A stretch of DNA of 64,000 nt. It comes from an uncultured bacterium (lineage in GTDB: Bacteria; Patescibacteriota; Minisyncoccia; UBA6257; 2-01-FULL-56-20). Each line of letters opens with the position of its first letter. Position 1 is the stretch's first letter. Below are positions 1 through 35,821 of the stretch, one piece after another. The translations under genes were made by a program, and so were the position numbers. The notes under the pieces were generated by a model. It saw only the letters and a program-made list of their open reading frames with translations, was not told where the DNA came from and searched no databases. The DNA is taken from positions 386,172-450,171 of the forward strand of contig OY970358.1 in the NCBI GenBank assembly GCA_963718575.1, written 5' to 3'.

Positions 1-488
1 TTCTTGAAGTCGTGCGTCCCGGCCCAACCGTAGGCGATCAATTCATGGGCGGGAAGATAATCTTTCCTGCCGATAACAGCATTGCTCTTAAGCCAAATGA
101 GTAGCTGAGAAAAATGCACGCCAGCCCGTTCCATGCCGTCGCGAAGCGCAAAAAGCATCTTATCCGAGTTAAAAATATAGACGGTGTTCTTGCGCTCAAG
201 ATGGGGCACGATCGCAGACAGCCACTCAGCCGTAAAGCGAGCGTACTCGCTCTCGGAGGCAAAGTTGTCGTTCAAGATATTTTTTGCCACTCTGATCTTT
301 GCGAATCCCGCCTTCGATTCCGCATATGCTACGGAATATGGAACGTCGCAACAGACGAGTTTTATTTTCCGCTTCCCGACGAGCCGATTCACAAGATCGG
401 CATCGCGGGCATCTGCGCACATGAGCAAATGATTTCCAATGCGGAACGCATCCCCATATTCTATTTTTTTAATTGAGTTTTTTGGCAT
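1..488 (-). CDS. DNA methyltransferase (N6-adenine/N4-cytosine class), partial; runs off window start
   Basis: Minus-strand translation from ATG at 488-486: MPKNSIKKIEYGDAFRIGNHLLMCADARDADLVNRLVGKRKIKLVCCDVPYSV... has a DVPY (DPPY-like) catalytic motif and an N-terminal pattern typical of N4/N6 MTases. It overlaps the stop of the upstream MTase by 20 nt and is absent from the ORF track because it is truncated by the window edge. Confidence 0.6.
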   Translation of the reverse strand, partial: MPKNSIKKIEYGDAFRIGNHLLMCADARDADLVNRLVGKRKIKLVCCDVPYSVAYAESKAGFAKIRVAKNILNDNFASESEYARFTAEWLSAIVPHLERKNTVYIFNSDKMLFALRDGMERAGVHFSQLLIWLKSNAVIGRKDYLPAHELIAYGWAGTHDFK

Positions 489-1752
489 GGATATTGGTCA
501 GGCGTTCAAACCTGGAAATAGTTAGATCGCAAAATACCGGTTCCAATTCGACCGTGTAGACCCGGCGCTTCAGTTGATGGGCGCTGATTAATGTGCTGCC
601 GCTGCCGCAGAAACTATCTAATATGATGTCGCCCGGCTTCGTGCAGCGGCGTATCGCTCGCTCGTGGAGCGTGGGCGGCTTGCTGGTTGCATGCTGATAC
701 TCGCTGCCCGGCAACCGCTTCGCCAGCCATATCTCAATGCCGTCGAGAATATCGTCGAGCGTGCGATTGCCCGTGCCGATCTCCTTATTCATGATCTCGG
801 AAAGATTTTCGATGCCCTTCGTGATCGGCGGCTTGTTTCTGACTCCATAAATACAAGGTTCATAAATCTTGCTGAACGCCACGCCGGGCGTTAACCCCAA
901 TCCATTTTTGATCCATAAGCAGGTGCGCTTGTAATCAATGCCGATCTCCCGATAGAGCGTCTGCAACAACCATACGTACGAGGAATCGCAGTAATAGAAG
1001 ACGTGCACGTCATCCTTCGCGACTGCGAGCGCGTTTACCATGCTCTTGCGGAGGAATTCCCTATAGGCTTCGTCGGTGCGCGTATCATTCACGCTGCCGC
1101 CGTAATTGGCGCGGCCGCCGACACCCTTCGCATAATCGACGCCCCCGCGCAAATTGTAGACCGGATCGGAATAGATCATCGATGCCTTATCGTTGCCGAA
1201 CAGCTTTTTGAGGACGGCGGAATCGTTCGCGTCGCCTACGGCCAGCCGGTGCGGTCCCAGCTGATAGATCTCGCCGAGTTTCGATTTCGGCTTTTTTATC
1301 TTCGCACGCTCTTTCTCTTCATCCCAATGGTCATCTTCCGCTTCGAGCATGCCGTCCCACAGATTTGCGAGTTCGTTCTCATCCATGCCGATCTCAATTA
1401 ACGTCTCGATATCGAAGGCCTGGAGCTTGGAAACGTCCCATTCGCCATGCAGCGCGTTGCTCGCGATCAAATAGCGATCGAATTCTTCCTTAGTGAGCTT
1501 GCGGTTCGGCACTCTGACGTCGACCATCTGATCGCCCATGCCCATTTCCATCATCGCTTGATGGCGGTGCTCCCCTGCGGCGATCGTGCCGTCGACATCG
1601 ATGACGATGATTTCGGCGTAACCGTTAATCTTGAGGCTCTTCTTTAAATTGCCGAACTGCCGCTCCGTATTGGTATTTGGATTTTGAGGACAAGGCTTAA
1701 GACTTTTCAAAAGCCTCCGTTCGTTGTGCCACGCTAAAGGTTGTCTGTTCAT
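469..1752 (-). CDS. ParB-like nuclease domain fused to a DNA N6/N4 methyltransferase (phage-type orphan MTase)
   Basis: The N-terminal region (IIVIDVDGTIAAGEHRHQAMMEMG) resembles a ParB/Srx fold. The C-terminal half has the SDPVYN (DPPY-like) motif followed by ILDSFCGSGST (the FxGxG AdoMet motif), the order expected for a beta-class N6A/N4C MTase. Confidence 0.75.
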   Translation of the reverse strand: MNRQPLAWHNERRLLKSLKPCPQNPNTNTERQFGNLKKSLKINGYAEIIVIDVDGTIAAGEHRHQAMMEMGMGDQMVDVRVPNRKLTKEEFDRYLIASNALHGEWDVSKLQAFDIETLIEIGMDENELANLWDGMLEAEDDHWDEEKERAKIKKPKSKLGEIYQLGPHRLAVGDANDSAVLKKLFGNDKASMIYSDPVYNLRGGVDYAKGVGGRANYGGSVNDTRTDEAYREFLRKSMVNALAVAKDDVHVFYYCDSSYVWLLQTLYREIGIDYKRTCLWIKNGLGLTPGVAFSKIYEPCIYGVRNKPPITKGIENLSEIMNKEIGTGNRTLDDILDGIEIWLAKRLPGSEYQHATSKPPTLHERAIRRCTKPGDIILDSFCGSGSTLISAHQLKRRVYTVELEPVFCDLTISRFERLTNIHAKKLN

Positions 1753-1771
1753 TGAGTTTATTTAATTAATT

Positions 1772-2146
1772 TTAATTTGCCTTCTTTTGGCCTTTTATCT
1801 GCAGCTCGCCGACATACTGGAGCCACAGCCGAATTGCACCCGGATTTCCTTCTTTCGCCTTTTCGCGGAGGGCGTTGATGACCTCCGGCAGATCGCTCTT
1901 CTCCCGCGCGAGAATTTCGTGTCGGATCAGCGCGGCGAATCCCGGCAATTTTTTCCAGTCCGATAACGTATCGGGGCTGACTCCGAATTTTTTCGCGAAC
2001 ATCTCCTGCGTTTTTACCTCGCGCAATGTGCGCGGCGTCGCGGAAAACCTGACGAATTCTTCAAATTCGCTGGTCAACCTGATGGACGGCAAAATTCTCT
2101 TAATCTCGGACTCCATAGGAGTGGAAACGTTTATTTTGGGGTTCAT
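1772..2146 (-). CDS. small HTH protein, possibly a phage terminase small subunit-like or transcriptional regulator
   Basis: MFAKKFGVSPDTLSDWKK is helix-turn-helix-like. The ORF lies next to phage-type methyltransferases. The start was chosen at the internal Met (MNPKINV). Confidence 0.3.
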   Translation of the reverse strand: MNPKINVSTPMESEIKRILPSIRLTSEFEEFVRFSATPRTLREVKTQEMFAKKFGVSPDTLSDWKKLPGFAALIRHEILAREKSDLPEVINALREKAKEGNPGAIRLWLQYVGELQIKGQKKAN

Positions 2147-2512
2147 AATGTTATTTTTTATTGATTTCGGCCTTTTTGAGCAACAAAAAAACCCGAGATA
2201 AATCCACGACATCCCAGCAAAGGAATGTCTTTGGACTTATCTCGGGCTCATCCGATGGCGAGGTCTAAGTATAGACCTTACGAACCACGGTATACCGACC
2301 TCGTGCTACGCGGGTATGATTTTCCTCCTAGTCCCGCCTATGAAGAAAACCACAACTATTTACTTTTCAAAAATAAAACCGTCGCGGGATATTTTCATTG
2401 TACCCATCTCGCATCTTAAATCAAGACCCGGCTGCCTGTGCAAAACCCAATGCTTTATAGCAACGCGAATAGCGCTCTTCGCGGAACCGAAAGAACCTGC
2501 TAAAATGCAACT

Positions 2513-3190
2513 ATGCTGATAAAGAAAATCGGGCATTGCTGCCTCCTTATAAGATCCGGATCGGGCGACAACCCGTTGATACTAACCGATCCCGGCTCGT
2601 TTTCCGTCGCGCAAAATAAGCTGCGAGGCATTGATGCGGTTCTTATCACGCACGAGCATGAGGATCACCTGCATATAAAATCGCTGCAGGAAATTCTCAA
2701 AAATAATCCACACGCGGAAGTGATCGCGAACGAAGGGGTCGGCAAAAAACTCGATAAAGTTAATATACCGCATCGTCGCATGCGCGATCGGGATACCGCT
2801 GAGATCAAGCGCGTTTCTATTGAAGCGTATGATGCCAAGCACGAAGAAATTTTCGAAGAGATCGGGCAGGTTCAAAATACCGCATTCCTCATCGCCGGAA
2901 AGCTCCTCATCCCCGGCGATTCGTTTTTCAAGCCGCCCACGTTCGTCGACATCCTCGCTCTTCCCGTCGCCGGACCGTGGTGCAAAATCGGCGATGCAAT
3001 CCGGTATGCGCTCGATGTGCATCCTGCGATAGCATTCCCGATCCACGATGGCATGCTCCAGCGCGATCGGGTCGGAGCGGCCTTTCGGATCCCCGAACAG
3101 GTATTAAAGAAGAACGATATTAACTTCGTAACGCTGGAAGAAGGGCAAGAGCATAATTTTTTATTCGCGGGATTTAAAGATGAGAAATAA
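2513..3190 (+). CDS. metallo-beta-lactamase fold hydrolase
   Basis: The ITHEHEDH (HxHxDH) zinc-binding motif is present, with downstream His/Asp residues (PIHDG). Confidence 0.7.
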   Translation: MLIKKIGHCCLLIRSGSGDNPLILTDPGSFSVAQNKLRGIDAVLITHEHEDHLHIKSLQEILKNNPHAEVIANEGVGKKLDKVNIPHRRMRDRDTAEIKRVSIEAYDAKHEEIFEEIGQVQNTAFLIAGKLLIPGDSFFKPPTFVDILALPVAGPWCKIGDAIRYALDVHPAIAFPIHDGMLQRDRVGAAFRIPEQVLKKNDINFVTLEEGQEHNFLFAGFKDEK

Positions 3191-3247: not shown

Positions 3248-3309
<62 letters not shown>

Positions 3310-3329: not shown

Positions 3330-4355
3330 TTAGCTTCCGGCCGCCCATTTGTTTTCTTCCCTGAACCAAAAAGGAAATTCTTCTTTGATGTGCTGAGCGA
3401 GACGCGCCGCGTTGCCGTGCGTGAGCATTCCCGCATACGACGCCACCGCCTGTTCGGTGGGATTTTCTCTCAGGCCGCGAAACATTCGCTTCTTGCTCGC
3501 CGTCCGCACGACGCGATGATCGGGAAAATGAATCCATCCGAGGAAATCGATGCCCGAGGCGAAACTCTTGATATAAACTTTATCGGGATGAAGGGCAAGC
3601 TTGAGCCGCTCGCCGAGAAATACGCTGATCTGCGGCATCAGATTTTCCAGGTACCGTCTGTCGCGAGAAAGTATTGCGAAATCGTCGGCATAACGGAGAT
3701 AGTACGCTATCTTCAGCTCGCGCTTCATAAATTGGTCGAATTCATTCATATAAATATTCACAAGAAGTTGCGAGGTAAGATTGCCGAGCGGAAGCCCCAC
3801 GCCCGGCCTCGTCGACGAGAAGCTCCCGATCACTTCTCCGAGAAGCCATCGGATTCCTTCGTCGGAAATCCGGCGGTGCAAAATTTCCGAAAGCACGCCA
3901 TGGTCGATTGTCGCGAAGAACTTCCGGATGTCGCATTTCAAGACCCAGACCGTTTTCGTATGATTCGCGCTCTCCTTGCGGGCGAACGAATCAAAACAAT
4001 CCAGCGCCCTATGCGTTCCCTTGTCGACGCGGCAGGAATACGAGTGAGAGATAAACGTTGTATCGAAGAACGGATAAAGCCTTCTATAAATGGCATGATG
4101 AAGCAAGCGATCCCGCACGGACGCCTTATGGATATTGCGCGGCTTCGGGTCGCAGATGTTGAACGCACGATACGGCCCATGCCGATACGAATGAGAAATG
4201 AGATCCCGATGGAGCAGGAAGATATGATCCATGAGGCGCAGCGAGAATTCCTGAACATCGGGTTTATTCCGCTTGCCGACAATGAATTCCGTCCACGCCT
4301 CCAAAAGATTTTCGACGCTCGCGATATCTTCGAGCGTACCCTGAAACTGAATCAT
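3330..4355 (-). CDS. diversity-generating retroelement (DGR) reverse transcriptase
   Basis: The RT motifs appear in the correct order: SYSCRVDKGTHRAL (DGR-type motif 2), LPLGNLTSQ (the DGR-specific [ILV]GxxxSQ in place of QGxxxSP) and YLRYADDFAIL (catalytic YADD). The 341-aa size is typical of DGR RTs, and TR/VR repeats lie adjacent. Confidence 0.88.
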   Translation of the reverse strand: MIQFQGTLEDIASVENLLEAWTEFIVGKRNKPDVQEFSLRLMDHIFLLHRDLISHSYRHGPYRAFNICDPKPRNIHKASVRDRLLHHAIYRRLYPFFDTTFISHSYSCRVDKGTHRALDCFDSFARKESANHTKTVWVLKCDIRKFFATIDHGVLSEILHRRISDEGIRWLLGEVIGSFSSTRPGVGLPLGNLTSQLLVNIYMNEFDQFMKRELKIAYYLRYADDFAILSRDRRYLENLMPQISVFLGERLKLALHPDKVYIKSFASGIDFLGWIHFPDHRVVRTASKKRMFRGLRENPTEQAVASYAGMLTHGNAARLAQHIKEEFPFWFREENKWAAGS

Positions 4356-4364
4356 GTATAAAGT

Positions 4365-4766
4365 ATGAACGAAACAACGCCAATTCCCAACCGTGCGACG
4401 CTGCCGATCCTGAAGCGGCTGATTACGGTATATAAATCATGGCATGAGACGATGCCCAATCTCGCGAAGACTTCGCGCTATACTTTGGGCGAGAAAATCG
4501 ACGCGCACCTCCTTGAGGTAATCGAACTTGTTTACACGGCAAGCTTTTTGCCGAAGGAGGAGAAATTACCGCTCCTGCAGAAAGCGATGGCGAAAACCGA
4601 TCTTCTCAAATTCTTCTTCCAGATAGGCTGGGAAATAAAATCGCTCGATGTCAAAAAATATATCGCGTTTTCTGAACAGCTCGATGAGATAGGCAGACAG
4701 CTCGGCGGATGGGCGCGGCAGTCGGCACAAAAAGAAACTCCCGCCCCCAAACGAGGGCGGGATTGA
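4365..4766 (+). CDS. avd: Avd-like accessory variability determinant (four-helix-bundle protein, TIGR02436-like)
   Basis: This 133-aa helical protein has a C-terminal LDEIGRQLGGWARQ resembling the bAvd C-terminus IAEVGRILGSWIAR, with matching overall helix periodicity. It lies between the TR and the RT but on the opposite strand, with its start codon 9 nt from the RT start. Confidence 0.65.
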   Translation: MNETTPIPNRATLPILKRLITVYKSWHETMPNLAKTSRYTLGEKIDAHLLEVIELVYTASFLPKEEKLPLLQKAMAKTDLLKFFFQIGWEIKSLDVKKYIAFSEQLDEIGRQLGGWARQSAQKETPAPKRGRD

Positions 4767-4777
4767 AACGAAGAGGG

Positions 4778-4910
4778 TTGCGCGGGCGGACGCCAGCGAG
4801 GACGCAGTTGTCGTTGAACCTGTTGTCGGGATAGTTCAGGTTGAGCTTGCGGTACTTAGCGTTGCGGTTCAAGTACACGATGCGACGGTTGCGGTTCGGG
4901 TCCAGCCAAG
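4778..4910 (-). repeat. DGR template repeat (TR), 133 bp
   Basis: It aligns base for base with 5309..5441 (offset 531). It has A on the minus (coding-sense) strand at all 16 mismatch positions and reads as AAC-rich codons in the target frame (LNRNAKYRKLNLNYPDNRFNDN). An A-free GC-rich 28-nt tract lies at its 3' end. Confidence 0.88.
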
Positions 4911-5228
4911 GAATGTGCGGAAAGTCATCTGCGCCACCGCCTCTCGGTGCCGGGCGAGAAATCTCGAAGCCGACAGCTTAAGGCTGAATCGAATTTGGAA
5001 TGTCCCCGTGAAGGTAATTCTCCAACTTCCCGCACCAAGCATCCTCGATTTCAAAAACATCAAGAGTCACACTGGAATGAGGCGTACCCGATTCCACTCC
5101 GGACTCTTGCGATGCTGGGTTCGACCGCCCGAAGCCGTAGCCGCAGGCATGCTGATCTACTTCCTGATAGTAATTGTGAGCCATTTTTATAAAAAAATAA
5201 AATCGGAAGACAAGTTCAAAAAAGAAAT

Positions 5229-5252
5229 GCCCGTTCCAAAATCGGAACGGGC
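5229..5252 (-). terminator. hairpin (9-bp stem gcccgttcc/ggaacgggc) followed by a T-run on the minus strand; terminator of the DGR target gene and possible DGR-associated stem-loop
   Basis: Inverted repeat read from the sequence. On the minus strand it is followed by tttcttttttg. It lies 46 nt 3' of the target-gene stop, between VR and TR. Confidence 0.5.
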
Positions 5253-5298
5253 AAAGGGACTGAGGGTCAAAAATCCAGAGGGCGAAAGCGCTTCAGTT

Positions 5299-5931
5299 CT
5301 AAGACTGTTTGCGCGGGCGGACGCCAGCGAGGACGCAGCCGCCGTCGAACCTGTCGACGGGATAGAACAGGTCGAGCTCGCGGTACTCAGCGCCGCGGCG
5401 CAAGTACACGATGCGACGGTTGCGGCTCGGGTCCAGCCAAGCTTCGTGCAGGAAGATCACGAACGGCTTCTTTCCGGAAGTCGTCGCTTTCCCGTGCTGC
5501 TCGGCGAAACGGATGCCGTGCTCGTACGTCGGGCGAAGCAGACCCTTCTCTTTCAGGATCGCAAGACCTTCTTCTTCGCTGAAGCTCTTGCCGGGGTCGA
5601 CGATTTCGATCTCGTCATCCCACGGCGTTTCGGAGGCTGTCAGCGGGAAGTTGGCCTGCGTGATCCAGTCGTTGAAGGGAAAGCCCAGCGCGGCCGTGAT
5701 CTCGTCGGTGTTGTTCGACCCGCCCATCTTCACCGTGAAGACAGAGGGGTCGAAGCCGAGAACCTTCTGAAACTCGTCTCGGTTGACCTTTGTCGGGTCG
5801 AGTTCCGCAGCGCAGCGCCGAAGATCGGTGAGAAGTCCGGAAGCAATCAATGCTTGAAGCTGACCGGACTCAAGGGTTTCAAACAGTTCGGCAAGATGCT
5901 TGCCTTGGGAAAGGGTAGCGGTCGTTGTCAT
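5299..5931 (-). CDS. DGR target (variable) protein, 210 aa, C-terminal VR-encoded domain (possibly a C-type-lectin/FGE-like fold)
   Basis: An AAGGAG RBS lies 6 nt upstream of the ATG at 5931. The C-terminus WLDPSRNRRIVYLRRGAEYRELDLFYPVDRFDGGCVLAGVRPRKQS is encoded by the VR. No signal peptide was recognised. Confidence 0.8.
   Translation of the reverse strand: MTTTATLSQGKHLAELFETLESGQLQALIASGLLTDLRRCAAELDPTKVNRDEFQKVLGFDPSVFTVKMGGSNNTDEITAALGFPFNDWITQANFPLTASETPWDDEIEIVDPGKSFSEEEGLAILKEKGLLRPTYEHGIRFAEQHGKATTSGKKPFVIFLHEAWLDPSRNRRIVYLRRGAEYRELDLFYPVDRFDGGCVLAGVRPRKQS
5309..5441 (-). repeat. DGR variable repeat (VR) at the 3' end of the target gene
   Basis: It is 117/133 identical to the TR, and all 16 differences map to TR adenines (coding strand A to G at 12, A to T at 3, A to C at 1). 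It encodes the C-terminal 44 aa of the target protein and ends 8 nt before the stop. Confidence 0.88.
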
Positions 5932-6102
5932 ATGCAACTCCTTCTGCTAGTCCACCGTTTGGATTTTTTGATTGGCGGGTTATAGCTTTCAGGCCGCGAG
6001 ATGGCTCATGGGCTGGAAGCTATAACCGCACCTTGGTTTATTAAAGAACGCTATCATTATACTATTATCAGAAATGCTTGTCAATGGCTCGGTTTTTTGT
6101 AT

Positions 6103-7005: not shown

Positions 7006-7584
7006 ATGAAAAAAAATAAAATATCTGCAAAGAATCCCACGCGCATTGGCGCGGATTTTTTCGATCGGCTGTGGCAGAAGAGCTGGACATATATCAAGAC
7101 CGTTGTTGATGTGGTGCGCGAACCGGTGCTCGTGCTCGACAAAGACCTTCGCGTAATGGCGGCGAACGATGCGTTCTATGAAACGTTCAGGGTTAAATCG
7201 AAAGAAACGGAGGGAAATATCGTGTATCAACTCGGCGACGGCCAGTGGGATATTCCCTCATTGCGAAAACTTCTTGAAGATATCCTTGCGCATAATACTT
7301 TCTTCAAAGGATTTCAGGTCGCCCATGAATTCCCCGGGATCGGGCGCAAGGTGATGATATTGAACGGACGACAGATCTATATTGAAGATTATGATAAAAA
7401 GGACTCGTTCCCGCCGATCATCCTGCTCGCCATCGAAGACGTCACCGAAATGATGGTGGTCGCCGAATCGCTTGCGAGCCACAACGATCAGATTGAAGCA
7501 AAATTCGTCATTCGCACGCAAAGATTGGAGGCACAGATCGAAAAAATGGAGCGGGAGATCGCCAAGCTCAAAAAACGGGCATAA
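7006..7584 (+). CDS. PAS-domain protein with C-terminal coiled coil (paralog 1)
   Basis: The PAS-fold core is REPVLVLDKDLRVMAANDAFYETF...GQWDIPSLRKLLEDIL, and the C-terminus is a heptad-like IEKMEREIAKLKK. It is about 78% identical to the ORF at 8302..8886. Confidence 0.6.
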   Translation: MKKNKISAKNPTRIGADFFDRLWQKSWTYIKTVVDVVREPVLVLDKDLRVMAANDAFYETFRVKSKETEGNIVYQLGDGQWDIPSLRKLLEDILAHNTFFKGFQVAHEFPGIGRKVMILNGRQIYIEDYDKKDSFPPIILLAIEDVTEMMVVAESLASHNDQIEAKFVIRTQRLEAQIEKMEREIAKLKKRA

Positions 7585-7746: not shown

Positions 7747-8271
7747 ATGACTCCCAAACAGGAGGCAAAACGGCAGGCGGCGTTGACAACTGCACACCAC
7801 GACTACGGAAGGGGGCTCCATTTGTATGCATTTTTCAAAGTGCGCAATCGCGCCGTAAGCGAGGACCTGGTACAGGACACGTTCATAAAAACGTGGGGGT
7901 ATTTGGTAAGGGGGGGCAAAGTGGTGGTCATGAAGGCATTTCTCTATCACATCCTCAACAATCTCATCGTGGATGAATATCGAAAGCATAAAACTGTCTC
8001 GCTTGATGTCCTGCTCGAAAAAGGATTCGAACCGAAAGCGCTGCACTCCGGATCCCCTCGCCGCCTTTTTAATTTTTTAGACGGGAAAGCGGCGCTCATT
8101 TTGATCCAGCGTCTTCCGGAAAAATATCAGATGGTGCTACGCATGCGTTATGTACAAGACCTATCACTCAAAGAAATCTCGCTCATCACCGGGCAGTCAA
8201 AAAATACCATTGCGGTCCAGATACACCGCGGGCTTGAACGACTGAAAGAGCTCTACAATCCTTCGGTGTAA
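7747..8271 (+). CDS. ECF-type RNA polymerase sigma-70 family factor
   Basis: Region 2 is EDLVQDTFIKTWGYL...LYHILNNLIVDEYRKHK and region 4 is LSLKEISLITGQSKNTIAVQIHRGLERLKE. The start was chosen at the ATG at 7747 (MTPKQ). Confidence 0.75.
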   Translation: MTPKQEAKRQAALTTAHHDYGRGLHLYAFFKVRNRAVSEDLVQDTFIKTWGYLVRGGKVVVMKAFLYHILNNLIVDEYRKHKTVSLDVLLEKGFEPKALHSGSPRRLFNFLDGKAALILIQRLPEKYQMVLRMRYVQDLSLKEISLITGQSKNTIAVQIHRGLERLKELYNPSV

Positions 8272-8301: not shown

Positions 8302-8886
8302 ATGGAAAAAAACAAGCGAGGTGAAGGACAAACCATTAGCCCTGTCGGTGCCGATTTTTTCGAGCGCCTCTGGGAGGAAAGCTGGACGTATATTAAAACC
8401 GTCGTTGACGTCGTGCGCGAACCCATTTTAATCCTCGATAAAGACCTTCGCGTGATGGCGGCAAACGAATCCTTCTATAACACATTCCAGGTGGAATCAA
8501 AGGATACCGAACATAAGATCGTGTATGAGCTCGGCAACGGCCAATGGAATATCCCCTCCCTTAAAAAACTCCTGGAGGATATTCTTCCCAAAAACACGTT
8601 CTTTAAGGGCTTTGAGGTCGCCCATGATTTTCCCGCGATCGGCCGCAAGATCATGATCCTTAATGCCCGCCAGATACACGTCGCCGCGAATGCCGCCGCG
8701 CCGCTCTTTCCGCCCATCATCCTGCTTGCCATGGAGGACGTGACGGATATGATGGCGGTCGCAGAGACGCTCGCCAACCACACAACCCAGCTTGAATCAA
8801 AACTCACAGAACGAACACAGATCCTCGAGGCGCGCATCGGAGATCTGGAAAAGGAGATCGGCAAGTTGAAAAAGGCGGCCATGTAA
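8302..8886 (+). CDS. PAS-domain protein with C-terminal coiled coil (paralog 2), candidate partner or anti-sigma of the adjacent ECF sigma
   Basis: Paralog of 7006..7584, located immediately downstream of the ECF sigma gene. Confidence 0.55.
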   Translation: MEKNKRGEGQTISPVGADFFERLWEESWTYIKTVVDVVREPILILDKDLRVMAANESFYNTFQVESKDTEHKIVYELGNGQWNIPSLKKLLEDILPKNTFFKGFEVAHDFPAIGRKIMILNARQIHVAANAAAPLFPPIILLAMEDVTDMMAVAETLANHTTQLESKLTERTQILEARIGDLEKEIGKLKKAAM

Positions 8887-8916: not shown

Positions 8917-10161
8917 ATGAAAACCATAAACAAAAACTCATTATTAACAGTATTGGGCGTCTTTTTGACGTTCGGCCTTGGCGCAGCAAGCCCAATGGCG
9001 GCATTCGCAGCGGGGCCACCGCCGGTCGATCTCGGCACTGCAGGAAACTTTGCCATCCTCGCAGAAACAGGGATCTCGACCACGGGATCGACTGCAGTAG
9101 TGGGAAATATCGGCATCAGCCCGGCGGCGGCAAGCTACATCACGGGATTTGCACTGACACTCCCCTCGGCCGGCGCGTTCTCCACATCGGCACTTGTGAC
9201 GGGAGATATCTATGCGCCGGGCTATGCGCTCCCCACCCCGACGGTGATGACCACTGCGATCAGTGATATGCAGACCGCTTACACGAACGGCGCCGGAATG
9301 ACCGATCCGACCGCGACAGAACTGGGTGCCGGAAACATCGGCGGACTCACCCTGGCGCCGGGACTTTATAAGTGGAGCACCGGCGTGACCATTCCGACGG
9401 ATGTCACGCTCTCTGGCGGCCCGAACGATGTCTGGGTATTCCAAATAGCGCAGGGTCTCAATGTGAGCCCGGGAGTAAACGTCGTCCTCAGTGGCGGCGC
9501 GCAGGCGAGCAATGTTTTCTGGATCGTCGCCGGACAGACCACCATCGGCACGACCGCGGTCGTGAACGGAACTATTTTAGATCAGACCACCATCGTATTG
9601 AACACAGGCGCGGTGTTAAATGGCCGGGCACTCGCGCAGGCAGCGGTGACACTCGACGCAAATACGGTGACGGAACCGGGAGCCGCGTCGACGCCGGCGC
9701 CCGTCGTCGTCATGGTGCCGACGTCGACGCCAGTGATAGTATCGACGCCAACTCCGGTATATACCTCTACGACGGCGTCTTCTACTAACAATCCGACGCT
9801 CACGCAGGCACAGACGACACAGGGGGCGCCGAATGCCACCCTACAAACCGAGTTGAACGGACTATTGTCTGAACTACAAACACTTCAAACCGAAGCGGCG
9901 CAACAAGGGTCACCAATCCAGGACGTTGCGGTAAATCTTTCGCAAGGCAGTACCGGCGATGCAGTGGCAATGTTGCAACAATTTTTGATCGACCAAAACA
10001 AAGGTCCGGCCGCCCAGGCACTGGCAAACGTTGGAGCGACTGCTTACTTTGGCTCCCTCACTCGCGCGGCATTGGCGGAATTTCAGGCGAGCGTCGGCGT
10101 CGGTCCGGCACTTGGAAATTTTGGAGCGATCACTCGGGCATATATCAGCGCGCATTACTAA
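8917..10161 (+). CDS. secreted DUF3494 (ice-binding-like) domain protein with a Ser/Thr/Pro linker and a C-terminal peptidoglycan-binding-like domain
   Basis: It has a signal peptide. LGTAGNFAILAETGISTTGSTAVVGNIGISPAAAS is the hallmark DUF3494 N-terminus. The C-terminal GDAVAMLQQFL...LTRAALAEFQAS is PG_binding_1-like. Confidence 0.65.
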   Translation: MKTINKNSLLTVLGVFLTFGLGAASPMAAFAAGPPPVDLGTAGNFAILAETGISTTGSTAVVGNIGISPAAASYITGFALTLPSAGAFSTSALVTGDIYAPGYALPTPTVMTTAISDMQTAYTNGAGMTDPTATELGAGNIGGLTLAPGLYKWSTGVTIPTDVTLSGGPNDVWVFQIAQGLNVSPGVNVVLSGGAQASNVFWIVAGQTTIGTTAVVNGTILDQTTIVLNTGAVLNGRALAQAAVTLDANTVTEPGAASTPAPVVVMVPTSTPVIVSTPTPVYTSTTASSTNNPTLTQAQTTQGAPNATLQTELNGLLSELQTLQTEAAQQGSPIQDVAVNLSQGSTGDAVAMLQQFLIDQNKGPAAQALANVGATAYFGSLTRAALAEFQASVGVGPALGNFGAITRAYISAHY

Positions 10162-10189
10162 ATCAATATAATAATTTAAACAAAAAAAC

Positions 10190-11527
10190 ATGAAGCGAAT
10201 CGAAGACAATATAATCACAACGATAATATCTGTTTTCTTGGTGCTCGGCGTTGCAGGACCCGCTATAGCATTTGCCGCCGGCCCGGCGCCGTTGAATCTC
10301 GGCACGGCCGGTAATTTTGCCATCCTCGCAGAAACCGCAATAACGACAACAGGAGCCACGGCGATCACCGGCGATGTCGGCATCAGTCCGGCAGCGGCAA
10401 CCTTCCTTCAGGGATTTGGATTGACGGCGGATCCGTCCAATACTTTTTCAACGTCAGCGCTCGTGACCGGAAAAATCTATGCCGCCAATTATACGCCGCC
10501 GACACCGGCATATATGACCACCGCCGTAAGCAATATGGATGCAGCATACGTTGATGGCGCCGGAAGGGCGACGCCCAACGCCACAAACGTTGATGCCGGG
10601 ATTCTTGGCGGAGAAACATTCGCCCCCGGACTCTATAATTGGACGACAGGCGTCACCATAGCGGCAGGAGGAACACCATCAACGACGATCACGTTGAACG
10701 GCGGCCCGAATGATGTCTGGATATTTCAGATAGATGGGAATATGACCGTTGCCGATGGAGGTAATCTGGGCAATGGTGCGCAGATCTTGCTCACTGGAGG
10801 AGCTCAGGCTCAAAATGTATATTGGGTCGTTGGCGGCTCCACGGGCGCAACACTCGGGGCATATTCAACATTCAATGGAAATATATTGAGCGCGAAACAG
10901 ATCATCATGAACGCAGGCGCGGCGTTGAACGGCCGGGCGCTCGCGCAAAGCCAGATCACGATGATTGCGAATACGGTTTCGCTTCCCGCCGGTTCGGCTC
11001 CTGCGACACTCAACGTCATCAAACTTGTCGTGAATGCGAATGGTGGCACGGCAATTCCTTCCAACTTCACCTTGCATGTAGAAAATGCCAGCTCCGGCCT
11101 TGACGTTGCAGGAAGTCCGTTACCTGGCGCCGCTGCGCCAGGGACACCCTATTCACTTGCTCCGGGCGCATACACGGTGAGCGAGAATGCCGCCCCGGGG
11201 TATACCCAGAGCTTTACCGGCACATGCAATGCAAGCGGCAATATCACTCTTACCGCAGGCGAGGTGGCGACCTGTACTATCGTAAACAGTGACATTCCGG
11301 CGCCAGTGGTGGCACCAGTCGTCAGTGGTGGCGGAGGCGGCGGAGAGATCGTGCCTTTGATCGGCATCACAAAAGTTCCTGCACCACTTACACTCCCCGC
11401 AGGGCCCGGCCAGGTCACCTACACCTATACCGTTCTGGAATGTCGGAGGGGACGCCCCGTTGACCGACGTCACCGTGACCGACAACAGATGCAGTCCGGT
11501 GACATACCTTTCCGGCGATCTAAATAA
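10190..11527 (+). CDS. secreted DUF3494 (ice-binding-like) protein, N-terminal part of a frameshifted LPXTG surface protein
   Basis: The LGTAGNFAILAETAITTTGATAITGDVGISPAAAT motif is present. The frame breaks after VTYTYTV (about 11430-11460) and continues in the +1 frame as LTDVTVTDNRCSPV. Confidence 0.6.
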   Translation: MKRIEDNIITTIISVFLVLGVAGPAIAFAAGPAPLNLGTAGNFAILAETAITTTGATAITGDVGISPAAATFLQGFGLTADPSNTFSTSALVTGKIYAANYTPPTPAYMTTAVSNMDAAYVDGAGRATPNATNVDAGILGGETFAPGLYNWTTGVTIAAGGTPSTTITLNGGPNDVWIFQIDGNMTVADGGNLGNGAQILLTGGAQAQNVYWVVGGSTGATLGAYSTFNGNILSAKQIIMNAGAALNGRALAQSQITMIANTVSLPAGSAPATLNVIKLVVNANGGTAIPSNFTLHVENASSGLDVAGSPLPGAAAPGTPYSLAPGAYTVSENAAPGYTQSFTGTCNASGNITLTAGEVATCTIVNSDIPAPVVAPVVSGGGGGGEIVPLIGITKVPAPLTLPAGPGQVTYTYTVLECRRGRPVDRRHRDRQQMQSGDIPFRRSK

Positions 11528-12143
11528 TAATGGACAACTTGACCCGGGCGAAAACTGGAAATATGACTGCGTCACCACGCTTGCCAGCACTACCACAAAC
11601 ACGGCTATCGCCACTGGGCATACCGGCACCCAGACCGCGGTCGCAACGGCCGTCGCGACAGTCGTTGTCGGCGCACCGCTTGACCCTCCGCTCATAAATA
11701 TTGTGAAAGTGCCGAGCCGCCTGGTCCCCTTCCCATTCGGCGGCGGTACGGTTACCTATACCTACACCGTCACCAACCCAGGAATGGTTCCGTTGAACAA
11801 CGTGTCGGTGACCGATAATAGATGCAGCCCGGTAAATTATCTTTCGGGTGATGTGAATGGGAACGGCCTCCTTGATCCGGGTGAGGTGTGGACCTATGCC
11901 TGCAGCACTAATATCACAAACTCGACCACCAATACCGCCACCGCCGAAGGAAGTGCGAACGGGCTTACCGCGATCGGCTATGCCTTTGCCACCGTCCTCG
12001 TATCCGCCCCCGTGTCCACGCCCGGACTTCCGAATACCGGATTTCCTCCGGCGGGGAACGACATCCCGTGGATTATCCTGGTAGTGACTGGCATCTCTAC
12101 AGCAATAATCTTATATTTCACCCAAAAGCGGCGGGTGGGATAA
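11460..12143 (+). CDS. DUF11-repeat (TIGR01451-like) C-terminal part with an LPNTG sortase-anchoring signal
   Basis: There are two repeats of VTYTYTVTN..VTDNRCSPV.YLSGD.N.NG.LDPGE.W.Y.C. The C-terminal LPNTG is followed by a hydrophobic helix and KRRVG. Confidence 0.65.
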   Translation: MTDVTVTDNRCSPVTYLSGDLNNNGQLDPGENWKYDCVTTLASTTTNTAIATGHTGTQTAVATAVATVVVGAPLDPPLINIVKVPSRLVPFPFGGGTVTYTYTVTNPGMVPLNNVSVTDNRCSPVNYLSGDVNGNGLLDPGEVWTYACSTNITNSTTNTATAEGSANGLTAIGYAFATVLVSAPVSTPGLPNTGFPPAGNDIPWIILVVTGISTAIILYFTQKRRVG

Positions 12144-12160
12144 TAATAAAAAAACGGGGT

Positions 12161-12790
12161 ATGCGATCGAACATCTCATCAACGTGGTCGATTATTATTG
12201 GCGCAGTTGTGCTCGTCTGTACGGGGGCTGTTGTTTTTTTCATACCCCCCAATGTTCAAGGGCAGTATTCGACCGGTGGTTCGCCCGTCGTCGCAGTTGT
12301 GCCAACCGTTGCGCCGGTCGCGGTCAGCGCCTCTTCTCCCTCGCAAACCGTGGGAATTCCTGCCCGTCTCATTATTCCGGCGATCAACATTGATACCACG
12401 ATAGCGCCGGCCGGGCTCGTCGATGGTGCCATGGGCGTACCCGTCGGTCCCACGAGCACCACGTGGTTCGATCTCGGCCCGCGTCCAGGCCAGATCGGGA
12501 GTGCGGTGATTGCCGGGCATGAAGGATGGAAGGACGGCATCTTTGCGATTTTCGATAATCTTCACGAACTGAGGCCGGGCGATGAGATCTATGTTGTGGA
12601 CGATCAAGGAGCGACCACGACCTTCGTAGTACAGACACTCCAGCTCTATAGCCAGAACGCCAATGCCTCATCGGTATTCACCTCAAATGACGGCTTGGCG
12701 CATTTGAACCTTATCACGTGCGAGGGCACATGGAACGCGGCAGAAAAAAGCTATTCCGACCGGCTTGTGGTATTTGCCAACAAGGAATAA
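12161..12790 (+). CDS. sortase (transpeptidase)
   Basis: There is an N-terminal TM segment, an IAGHEGW catalytic His and an LNLITCEG (TLxTC) catalytic Cys. It follows the LPNTG substrate gene directly. Confidence 0.7.
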   Translation: MRSNISSTWSIIIGAVVLVCTGAVVFFIPPNVQGQYSTGGSPVVAVVPTVAPVAVSASSPSQTVGIPARLIIPAINIDTTIAPAGLVDGAMGVPVGPTSTTWFDLGPRPGQIGSAVIAGHEGWKDGIFAIFDNLHELRPGDEIYVVDDQGATTTFVVQTLQLYSQNANASSVFTSNDGLAHLNLITCEGTWNAAEKSYSDRLVVFANKE

Positions 12791-12801
12791 AAACCTTTGC
12801 G

Positions 12802-13869
12802 TCATGGCGCGAATGGCGTTGCGCCGCGCCAGTCGGCAGTGTACGTCTTTATGAGCGACGTGATGATGCCCGGATCCGTCAGTATGATTCCGAGCTCTCG
12901 GTTGTCACTGAGTGATGTCGCAGAAAAATTTTCTGACCCAACAAACGCCCGGGCGGATGCACTCTCGCCATCAGCAACAATCACCTTGGCATGAACATAG
13001 AGCGGCGCGTCATCCGCATCGGCATAGGTGCGCACATGCACTCCTGCGGTGGTAAGCTCTTCGAACTCCCACTTCCATTCAAGAGCGCCTGTCATATCCA
13101 CATAGACGGCGATGCCCCGTCGCGCGGCATCGATGAGTGCTTTCGTCACGACCGGATCAGCCATCTCCTCGTTGTATATATAGAGTGATTTTCTCGCCCC
13201 ATCAATAAGATTGATCAACGCCGGTTCCGAACCAGGGCTCCAAAGAAGGTCGTCGCCTGAGTCGCCGTTGTTACCGCCGCTCGCGGGAGTGCCACGCCCT
13301 GGCGTGGCGCTCCCCTCCCAATCATCATTGAACGTATCCTTCATTGCCTCAACATCGCGTGTGTCATCGTCAACAATTCCAAAGTCACGTCCGGTGGCGT
13401 AATAGTTTGAAACCAAGTTGAAGGTCATGACGAGCGCGCGATCGCTGTCGACGACCAGTGATTTTTCGTGCGTCAAAGAAAAATACGATGGCGACCATCG
13501 CACCGGGATTCCACGCGCAGTTAAGTAGTCATATACCGCGCCGTTCATCGTGGACATCGCCCCTTGATACCCGGCACTCAGGATGACCCGCACCGCTACG
13601 CCGCGCCGTTCATCTGCCACGAGCGCGGACTCGATCTGTGGGTCATCAAACTCATACATCACGAGATCCACGGACGCCGAAGCACCGCGGATCATCGTAA
13701 GTACCGGCGCGATGCCATCGTCCGGTTCGGTAATAAGCGAAAACGCTCCACTTGAAGTAATATTTTTATATTGAACTGGAAAGAATTGCGCGTGAAATCG
13801 AAACAAGACAAAAATCCCTGCCATCGCGATACAAATCGAGATGAATATATGGTTTCGTTTCATTCCCAA
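12802..13869 (-). CDS. phospholipase D-family protein (two HKD motifs), membrane-anchored
   Basis: HKD motif 1 is THEKSLVVDSD and HKD motif 2 is VHAKVIVADGESASARAFVGSENFS. Confidence 0.7.
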   Translation of the reverse strand: MGMKRNHIFISICIAMAGIFVLFRFHAQFFPVQYKNITSSGAFSLITEPDDGIAPVLTMIRGASASVDLVMYEFDDPQIESALVADERRGVAVRVILSAGYQGAMSTMNGAVYDYLTARGIPVRWSPSYFSLTHEKSLVVDSDRALVMTFNLVSNYYATGRDFGIVDDDTRDVEAMKDTFNDDWEGSATPGRGTPASGGNNGDSGDDLLWSPGSEPALINLIDGARKSLYIYNEEMADPVVTKALIDAARRGIAVYVDMTGALEWKWEFEELTTAGVHVRTYADADDAPLYVHAKVIVADGESASARAFVGSENFSATSLSDNRELGIILTDPGIITSLIKTYTADWRGATPFAP

Positions 13870-35736: not shown

Positions 35737-35821
35737 CGGAGAAGGAGGGATTCGAACCCTCGGTACCTTTCGGTACACAGTCTTTCCAGGACTGCCGTTT
35801 AAACCACTCACGCACCTCTCC
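35737..35821 (-). tRNA. tRNA-Ser (anticodon GGA), CCA not encoded
   Basis: A manual cloverleaf fold shows acceptor GGAGAGG/CTTCTCC, anticodon stem CAGTC/GACTG with loop CTGGAAA, a long variable arm GTACC-GAAA-GGTAC and T-arm GAGGG-TTCGAAT-CCCTC. Confidence 0.85.

Follow-up and report, generated by a model that had tools for sequence, protein, structure and literature searches.

An intact DGR in a Patescibacteria genome and its small, signal-less target protein with a probable, highly divergent C-type-lectin-like core domain

The DGR cassette and its target gene

The ORF at 5299..5931 on the minus strand of the 64-kb window (the whole stretch of DNA that was analysed) is the target gene of an intact DGR in a Patescibacteria (CPR) genome. 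In the ORF list it runs from an ATG at 5931 to a stop codon at 5301..5299 and encodes a variable protein of 210 aa (plus the stop) with the N-terminus MTTTATLSQGK. The start methionine is the same one that is found in the homologues, and a Shine-Dalgarno sequence, AAGGAG, is located at 5943..5938, 6 nt 5' of the ATG. The gene call draws on the ORF list, the homologues and the AF2 model. About 125 nt 5' of the ATG, the promoter scan finds a sigma-70-type promoter-like site at 6056..6084 on the minus strand (TTGACA-17-TATAAT, 12 of 12 consensus positions), which is a consensus match only. On the other side of the gene there is a hairpin at 5228..5253 on the minus strand, 57 nt 3' of the variable repeat, with an 11-bp stem and a 4-nt loop followed by a T-run. 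It was found by the terminator scan, by DNA folding (z = -3.6) and by RNA folding. This hairpin looks like the terminator of the target gene, and it may also serve as the target-site hairpin of the DGR.

The reverse transcriptase (RT) gene is found at 3330..4355 on the minus strand and encodes 341 aa plus the stop, with matches to RVT_1 (3.8e-22) and phrog_1423 (8e-105). Its translation has the motifs LGNLTSQ and YADD, which together we take to be the hallmark of a DGR RT. The avd accessory gene (4365..4766, plus strand, 133 aa) lies on the opposite strand to the target, the template repeat and the RT. Its product matches the bAvd profile PF22296 (E 7.5e-12, 46.1 bits, above the cutoff of 40) and phrog_3206, 'Avd protein of DGR'; the match to NF033474 DivGenRetAVD (1e-18, 67.5 bits) falls below the cutoff of 80. 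The avd and RT genes are divergent, with start codons 9 nt apart. The order of the cassette is thus target with variable repeat, template repeat, avd on the opposite strand, and RT, and the RT, Avd, template repeat and target are all intact. This layout is that of architecture B3, TR-(avd)-RT with avd on the reverse strand, which makes up 90% of the CPR DGR set in Wu et al. 2018 (PMC5758913). Another hairpin, identified by the terminator scan and RNA folding, is located at 4739..4762 on the minus strand, 16 nt 3' of the template repeat and inside the antisense 3' end of avd. It has a 10-bp GC-rich stem and a 4-nt loop followed by a U-run. There is a hairpin in a like place 3' of the template repeat at a second locus with a member of the target family (L003, see below), unlike in BPP-1.

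Template and variable repeats

The repeat search gave one long direct repeat, 4778-4924 against 5309-5455, which was then trimmed to the true homology. The template repeat (TR) is located at 4779..4909 on the minus strand and is 131 nt long, with 31 adenines and nine AAC codons in the frame of the target. The variable repeat (VR), also 131 nt, is located at 5310..5440 on the minus strand and extends over codons 165-207 plus two bases of codon 208. The two differ at 16 positions, and all 16 mismatches are at TR adenines (12 A>G, 3 A>T and 1 A>C). No third copy of TR or VR was found within the 64-kb window. With mismatches confined to adenines and with RT and Avd adjoining, the original prediction of a DGR target of 210 aa is borne out.

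In the TR there are 19 codons with an A at position 1 or 2, including the nine AAC codons, and none of those listed has an A at position 3. These adenine-coded, diversifiable codons lie between codons 167 and 198 (5338..5433, minus strand), a stretch that is defined by the codon table, the family entropy and the population variants, and they allow for ~3e17 possible protein variants. The variable residues end 12 residues short of the C-terminus of the target. Beyond them, codons 199-207 (CVLAGVRPR; 5310..5337, minus strand) form the adenine-free, GC-rich end of the VR, which is identical in TR and VR and stands out in the alignment, in the family conservation and as a strand in the AF2 model. 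The two repeats share 26 nt of this adenine-free GC-rich sequence and diverge directly past the shared end. At the protein level, LAGVR is near-invariant in the family, and residues 199-206 form a beta-strand in the model. Codons 199-207 are a probable IMH-like element, by analogy with the IMH of BPP-1 (PMC5758913), and in the model they probably also encode the last beta-strand of the core domain. It had been claimed that the VR covers the whole C-terminus of the target. This is correct in that the VR ends two codons before the stop, but the codons that vary are only those from 167 to 198. A VR that reaches the C-terminus is the normal DGR arrangement.

The target family and its genomic distribution

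A word-indexed family search finds 120 homologues of the target, and an exhaustive search finds at least 609 clusters (50% identity, E <= 1e-3), of which 195 reach <= 1e-10. The named sources are all MAGs of Patescibacteria, Parcubacteria, Paceibacterota, Giovannonibacteria or Saccharibacteria. In the majority of members the length is 140-220 aa. The conserved unit corresponds to residues ~62-210 of the target, with the motifs ITxxNFP, GLxRPTYE(H/D)ALxFG, (I/V)VFLHEPW and a terminal xAGVR(K). The part ahead of it, ~60 residues at the N-terminus, is a module that differs between members: two or more helical versions without relation to each other occur, and many members lack it. A few family proteins have two or three core domains in tandem, each closed by its own AAVRK-like motif. 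When the N-terminal 63 residues were the sole query, the only matches were two truncated fragments of family members, and new architectures did not turn up. Residues 5-43 of the target are weakly similar to a single armadillo repeat in designed ARM proteins, with an E-value of 1e-4 that is inflated by the repeats. We take the likeness as a hint at a helical N-terminal module and do not read it as homology.

The family is not covered by the collections of known domains. The target has no family match in Pfam (at E <= 0.1), NCBIfam, PHROGs or PADLOC, and a match to IscB in NCBIfam at 0.12 is noise. When 64 diverse relatives were compared with Pfam, there were scattered single matches only, none of them recurrent.

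Two other Patescibacteria contigs have family members with a cassette of this kind. At L003, the target-TR-(avd)-RT layout is as in the window; the adjoining target is a distant family member, with 28% identity in the core. Here 20 of 20 TR/VR mismatches are at adenines, and the RT is 65% identical to the RT in the window. At L011, there is a similar layout around a closer relative of the target, with some indels. This is the one locus of 12 in species-representative genomes where RT, Avd and TR are found beside a family member, L003 being counted separately. On the contig that carries L001 and L003, the paralogues P0083 and P0093 are located 4-16 kb from the cassette; its TR has no match to either of them and fits a third, more distant member. 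Several paralogues per genome are often found. For the other family loci with usable flanks, no RT or TR was found within up to 10 kb. Because most loci lack both within this distance, family members are often remote or orphan targets, and membership of the family is therefore no proof of current diversification. The flanks of L001-L015 and of the P0007 locus contain unrelated housekeeping genes (ribosomal, replication, central metabolism). No conserved partner gene is found beside the family members at these loci, so the neighbourhood gives no functional clue.

Diversification in natural populations

Four proteins from other, metagenomic assemblies (P0257, P0258, P0259 and P0260) fall into the same 90%-identity cluster as the window protein and are 100% identical to it over residues 1-166. 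They differ from it at codons 167-198, almost solely at adenine-coded positions; the exception is L177V in P0260, where the codon is not adenine-coded. In the wider family, variation is concentrated at the same codons. In 59 members, the 19 adenine-coded codons have a mean column entropy of 2.76 bits, compared with 0.92 bits for the other VR codons and 1.26 bits for the remainder of the core domain.

The absence of RT and TR within 10 kb of many family members, together with an RT at L011 that is split over three frames, could be taken to mean that the DGR is a fossil, with a VR that was diversified once and a cassette that is dead now. We regard this as very improbable for the window. The cassette here has an intact RT, Avd, TR and target, the TR/VR mismatches are purely at adenines with the other bases undecayed, and the differences between near-identical strains are almost confined to adenine-coded codons. 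On the evidence of these sequences, the DGR is active or recently was, because the four variants share one scaffold and differ almost exclusively where the template has adenines.

Predicted fold of the target

With the family alignment as input, AF2 predicts the full-length target with a pLDDT of 87.5; the N-terminal helices are at 56-82, and residues 62-210 are above 90. When the core domain (62-210) is predicted alone, the pLDDT is 96.3 and the pTM 0.91. In the model, residues 1-60 form a helical N-terminal module and residues 62-210 a compact alpha/beta domain. DSSP assigns strands at 104-111, 157-166, 172-179, 184-189 and 199-206 and helices at 119-128 and 136-146. The core model begins with a further strand, which is followed by a short helix and by a long loop that leads to the strand at 104-111. 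Along the sequence, the order of elements is that of a CTLD, beta1-alpha1-alpha2-beta2-beta3-beta4-beta5.

The original prediction had proposed a structure prediction and a fold search, with a CLec- or FGE-like minidomain as the possible outcome. The compact domain and the fold search agree with the first of these. About 45 of the best 50 Foldseek matches in the PDB are C-type lectin domains, aligned over 106-137 columns, even though no single match is significant: for both models there are zero matches at E <= 0.001, and the best E-value is 0.09. The lectins in question include mincle, mannose-binding protein, SP-D, CLEC12A, TC14, CD23, LOX-1 and NKG2D, with E-values of 0.09-2 and TM-scores of 0.35-0.51. 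[quoted passage not shown] In the BFVD, the best matches are C-type lectins of poxviruses and herpesviruses. The FGE part of the proposal finds no counterpart. FGE and the solved DGR variable proteins are absent from the best 50 Foldseek PDB matches, and the HMMs for FGE-sulfatase (PF03781) and DUF1566 (Lcl_C), as well as Lectin_C, match neither the target (E <= 0.1) nor any of the 64 relatives (E <= 1). The proposed comparison with Mtd and TvpA fares no better, as neither is among the best 50 structural matches, and hhalign of the family profile against Mtd of BPP-1 gives a probability of 0.5% (E 0.12) with the aligned stretch outside the VR region. The profile of the core domain has zero matches among PDB sequences, and a sequence or profile link of the target to any lectin family was not found.

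These numbers leave some room for a core domain that is a new fold unrelated to C-type lectins, with the weak matches coming from a common alpha/beta arrangement. All Foldseek E-values are 0.09 or higher and the TM-scores are mostly below 0.5 (0.35-0.45), no profile connects the family to lectin-type families or to Mtd, and Wu et al. 2018 left the CPR VR classes UVR1-6 without a fold (PMC5758913). Nevertheless, the best matches nearly all belong to one fold class, are near full-length and come from two independent libraries and two models. The order of secondary structure elements fits a CTLD, the VR falls on strands and loops at the C-terminus, where it is also found in the CLec variable proteins that are known, and every annotated VR domain in Roux et al. 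is a CLec domain (PMC8144416). We consider the new fold rather unlikely, and the model points to a highly divergent C-type-lectin-like scaffold as the likely nature of the core domain. This would fit Roux et al. 2021, who predicted that VR domains still lacking a characterisation, above all those in CPR, are new CLec variants (PMC8144416). The CLec-like core is best read as Ca-independent.

The variable positions 174, 176 and 178 alternate with the conserved V175 and L177, and 185, 187 and 189 alternate with the conserved L186 and L188, on two adjacent strands of a hairpin. The other variable positions are in the loop before the hairpin (167, 169, 171), in its turn (180, 182, 183) and in the loop after it (190-198). 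Because the variable positions alternate with conserved hydrophobic residues, the variable residues should lie on one exposed face made up of the last hairpin (172-179 / 184-189) and its flanking loops. The opposite side of the hairpin would then be packed against the core.

Cellular location

The maximum Kyte-Doolittle mean over 19 residues is 0.87 in the window protein, and the usual threshold for a TM segment is ~1.6. There is no signal peptide or TM segment in this protein, as had been claimed for it, and no lipobox. It has two cysteines and a pI of 5.3. In the family, 266 of 271 proteins (~98%) have no hydrophobic segment. The remaining five include P0138 and P0173, in which two TM helices at the N-terminus are framed by Lys/Arg clusters, one ahead of the first helix and one behind the second. 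Because there are Lys/Arg residues at both ends of the hairpin, the positive-inside rule predicts that the domain is kept in the cytoplasm in these two proteins. P0170 has a hydrophobic tail at its C-terminus. P0243 has a clear lipoprotein signal with a lipobox and would be exported, and the family domain can therefore also work outside the cell. Conserved disulphide pairs were not found in the family.

Some of this could be reconciled with a target that is exported or displayed without a classical signal and has a role at the surface, as is commonly supposed for DGR targets in cells, e.g. in attaching an episymbiont to a host cell or to particles. The majority of cellular DGR targets are anchored in the membrane and bind extracellular substrates, with the case of CPR left open (Roux et al. 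2021, PMC8144416), and for some CPR/DPANN DGRs an interaction with host cells is likely (Dore et al. 2024, PMC10907252). P0243, with its signal peptide and lipobox, also speaks for a surface role, and the best-matching solved structures are extracellular lectins and adhesin tips. On the other hand, hydrophobic segments are missing in nearly the whole family, the two members with a TM hairpin are predicted to have the domain on the cytoplasmic side, genes for secretion systems or surface structures are not conserved beside family members, where the neighbours are housekeeping genes, and there are no conserved disulphide pairs, with only two cysteines in the window protein. A surface role is possible but in our judgement the less probable case. 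Since export signals are absent, the target is most likely soluble and probably cytoplasmic. Roux et al. 2021 report that CPR clade-2 targets typically have no recognisable TM segment or other conserved domain, and that it remains to be established whether CPR targets are genuinely not membrane-bound (PMC8144416).

Comparison with known systems

The closest known systems are the DGRs of CPR, that is RT clade 2 of Roux et al. 2021 and the B3 or 'CPR set' of Wu et al. 2018. They are found in the same host group and are likewise chromosomal. They also share with the element in the window the TR-(avd)-RT order with a reversed avd, the C-terminal VR and a target without TM segment, signal or Pfam domain. 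There are no fundamental differences. Paul et al. in 2017 reportedly gave a further account of CPR DGRs. A short soluble target had been put forward as something special, whereas it is the documented norm for CPR DGRs (PMC8144416, PMC5758913). Small CPR targets without a signal have already been described, and the locus in the window is a well-documented example of them.

Mtd of BPP-1 and TvpA of Treponema denticola have, like the target, a VR in the last ~45 residues, an AAC-rich TR and probably a CLec domain in common. The terminal strand of the target is presumably like the invariant G-(F/V)-R-like ending of Mtd and TvpA. Otherwise the proteins are different. Mtd is a 381-aa trimeric tip of a phage tail fibre and TvpA is a lipoprotein, whereas the target has 210 aa and no signal, fibre or stalk. 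There is no sequence or profile similarity to either of the two.

As DGRs were first found in phage, the target could also be a phage or prophage gene for a receptor-binding tip like Mtd of BPP-1. The left edge of the window is in fact phage-like, with a ParB-N6/N4 methyltransferase (phrog_498, 4e-78) and a weak small-terminase-like HTH (phrog_309, 1.9e-5). However, the target has no PHROG match, capsid, tail and fibre genes were not found nearby, and the protein, which has no fibre or trimerisation stalk, is too short for such a tip. Its relatives are located among ribosomal, replication and central-metabolism genes, and the clade-2 DGRs of CPR are almost entirely cellular (PMC8144416). A phage origin of the target, for which we see next to no chance, was rejected on the missing PHROG match, the missing tail genes and the housekeeping context.

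Bd2740 and the animal CRDs (mincle, MBP, CLEC12A, TC14) have the same order of helices and strands as the target, and the alignments cover 106-137 columns of the 149-residue domain. Identities are 5-11%, the E-values are non-significant, and those proteins are extracellular. In addition, the N-terminal strand, short helix and long loop of the target are extra to Bd2740 and the animal CRDs. Unlike the animal CRDs, the target has, as read from its sequence, neither conserved disulphides nor an EPN/QPD-WND motif, which we take to be the calcium/sugar motif of C-type lectins.

Cytoplasmic CLec targets of DGRs have been predicted in multicellular bacteria by Dore et al. 2024 and proposed to be intracellular sensors (PMC10907252), and CLec-AAA ATPase targets have been reported for CPR (PMC10907252). 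What these have in common with the target in the window is a CLec-type domain that is diversified by a DGR and a predicted cytoplasmic location. All of these targets are large and have several domains (STAND NTPase, MoxR-associated, AAA ATPase), among them an obvious transducer. The window target, in contrast, has only a 60-residue helical module, and an effector domain or a conserved neighbour is absent.

Proposed mechanism and biological meaning

From established DGR biology, the RT-Avd complex would copy the TR RNA and misincorporate opposite adenines, and the resulting cDNA would take the place of the VR; the GC-rich end that lacks adenines would serve as the IMH. The variable face would be the ligand-binding surface, and its specificity would be re-drawn with each replacement of the VR. 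It is quite probable, in our view, that the locus holds the variable-protein gene of a complete CPR DGR, and that its product, a divergent CLec-like protein, is soluble, probably located in the cytoplasm, and binds ligands with a specificity that keeps changing.

What is new here is the high-confidence model, the size of the family, the swapping of N-terminal modules and the variants from natural populations. The locus is an intact and diversifying member of a large unannotated family, on which the membrane question raised by Roux et al. 2021 can be addressed. The rare relatives with two TM helices point to a cytoplasmic orientation, and one lipoprotein relative points the opposite way. If a CLec scaffold of 150 residues that is free of disulphides and compatible with the cytoplasm is confirmed, with ~1e17 variants, it would be a compact scaffold for DGR-based directed evolution.

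A more far-reaching idea, which we offer as speculation with a small chance of being right, is that the family serves CPR as a hypervariable receptor inside the cell. It would be a minimal soluble, antibody-like CLec module, with N-terminal modules that dock to cytoplasmic partners. If this were true, these symbionts would need no fused effector to sense ligands that change inside the cell, e.g. proteins of phages or molecules derived from the host.

Domain architecture and paralogues of the target family

Proteins of the target family can contain the core domain more than once. As an example, the relatives P0255 (490 aa) and P0129 (322 aa) carry it in two or three tandem copies, and every copy closes with a C(R/V)FAAVRK-like VR terminus of its own; in P0129, two different subfamilies are joined in a single protein. 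The N-terminal part also varies within the family. The 210-aa target has an N-terminal helical module whose residues 5-43 match designed armadillo-repeat proteins weakly but repeatedly (E about 1e-4, motif eqlQaLiasGllsdL); in other family members an unrelated helical module (AGELYETITGQLFELGRQLRQ...) takes its place.

Several family members may also be found around one DGR. On JGI contig Ga0265296_1000103 there are three paralogues (L001 8001-8645, L003 8001-8648 and L003 11815-12417, L001 and L003 being loci of target relatives), all no more than about 16 kb from one cassette and with housekeeping genes in between. The TR of this cassette matches only the adjacent paralogue, which is the most divergent of the three. 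For the VRs of the other two no template was found within the retrieved contig DNA, and these paralogues are therefore either orphans or targeted in trans by another DGR.

Genes surrounding the DGR

Phage-like genes adjoin the DGR at the left edge of the window (469-2212, minus strand) and may represent a prophage remnant. They encode an N6/N4 DNA methyltransferase with a ParB-like domain fused at its N-terminus (phrog_498, 4e-78) and an HTH protein of 146 aa with a weak likeness to a small terminase subunit (phrog_309, 1.9e-5). A metallo-beta-lactamase-fold gene (2513-3190) is convergent with the RT gene, and between the two lies a perfect (TC)21 dinucleotide microsatellite (3250-3291), approximately 40 nt 3' of the RT stop codon.

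Elsewhere in the window, an ECF-type sigma-70 gene (about 7759-8271) lies between the genes of two paralogous PAS-domain proteins of about 190 aa each (7006-7584 and 8302-8886). In a surface-protein cluster (8917-12790), two of the proteins are secreted and ice-binding-like (PF11999), and the second of these also has a SpaA-type prealbumin domain. The cluster further contains a sortase and a DUF7507/DUF11 protein that bears an LPNTG-like sorting motif.

The avd/RT region and a hairpin downstream of the TR

The start codons of avd (plus strand) and RT (minus strand) are separated by only 9 nt (4355-4365). The genes are divergent, and the promoter of each must therefore lie within the coding sequence of the other; any transcript spanning both TR and RT would run antisense to the entire avd gene.

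At the Rfam gathering threshold, the whole 64-kb window gave no match except a single tRNA (35737-35821, minus strand). On the minus strand at 4739-4762, 16 nt past the TR and inside the 3'-terminal part of the avd gene, which runs antisense, is a GC-rich hairpin with a 10-bp stem and a 4-nt loop, followed by a U-run. The BPP-1 TR, in contrast, is said to have no inverted repeat after it. In L003, a hairpin and U-run follow the TR at a similar position (12895-12914). In B3-type CPR DGRs, such a hairpin might set the 3' terminus of a short TR RNA, or it might have a role in priming.
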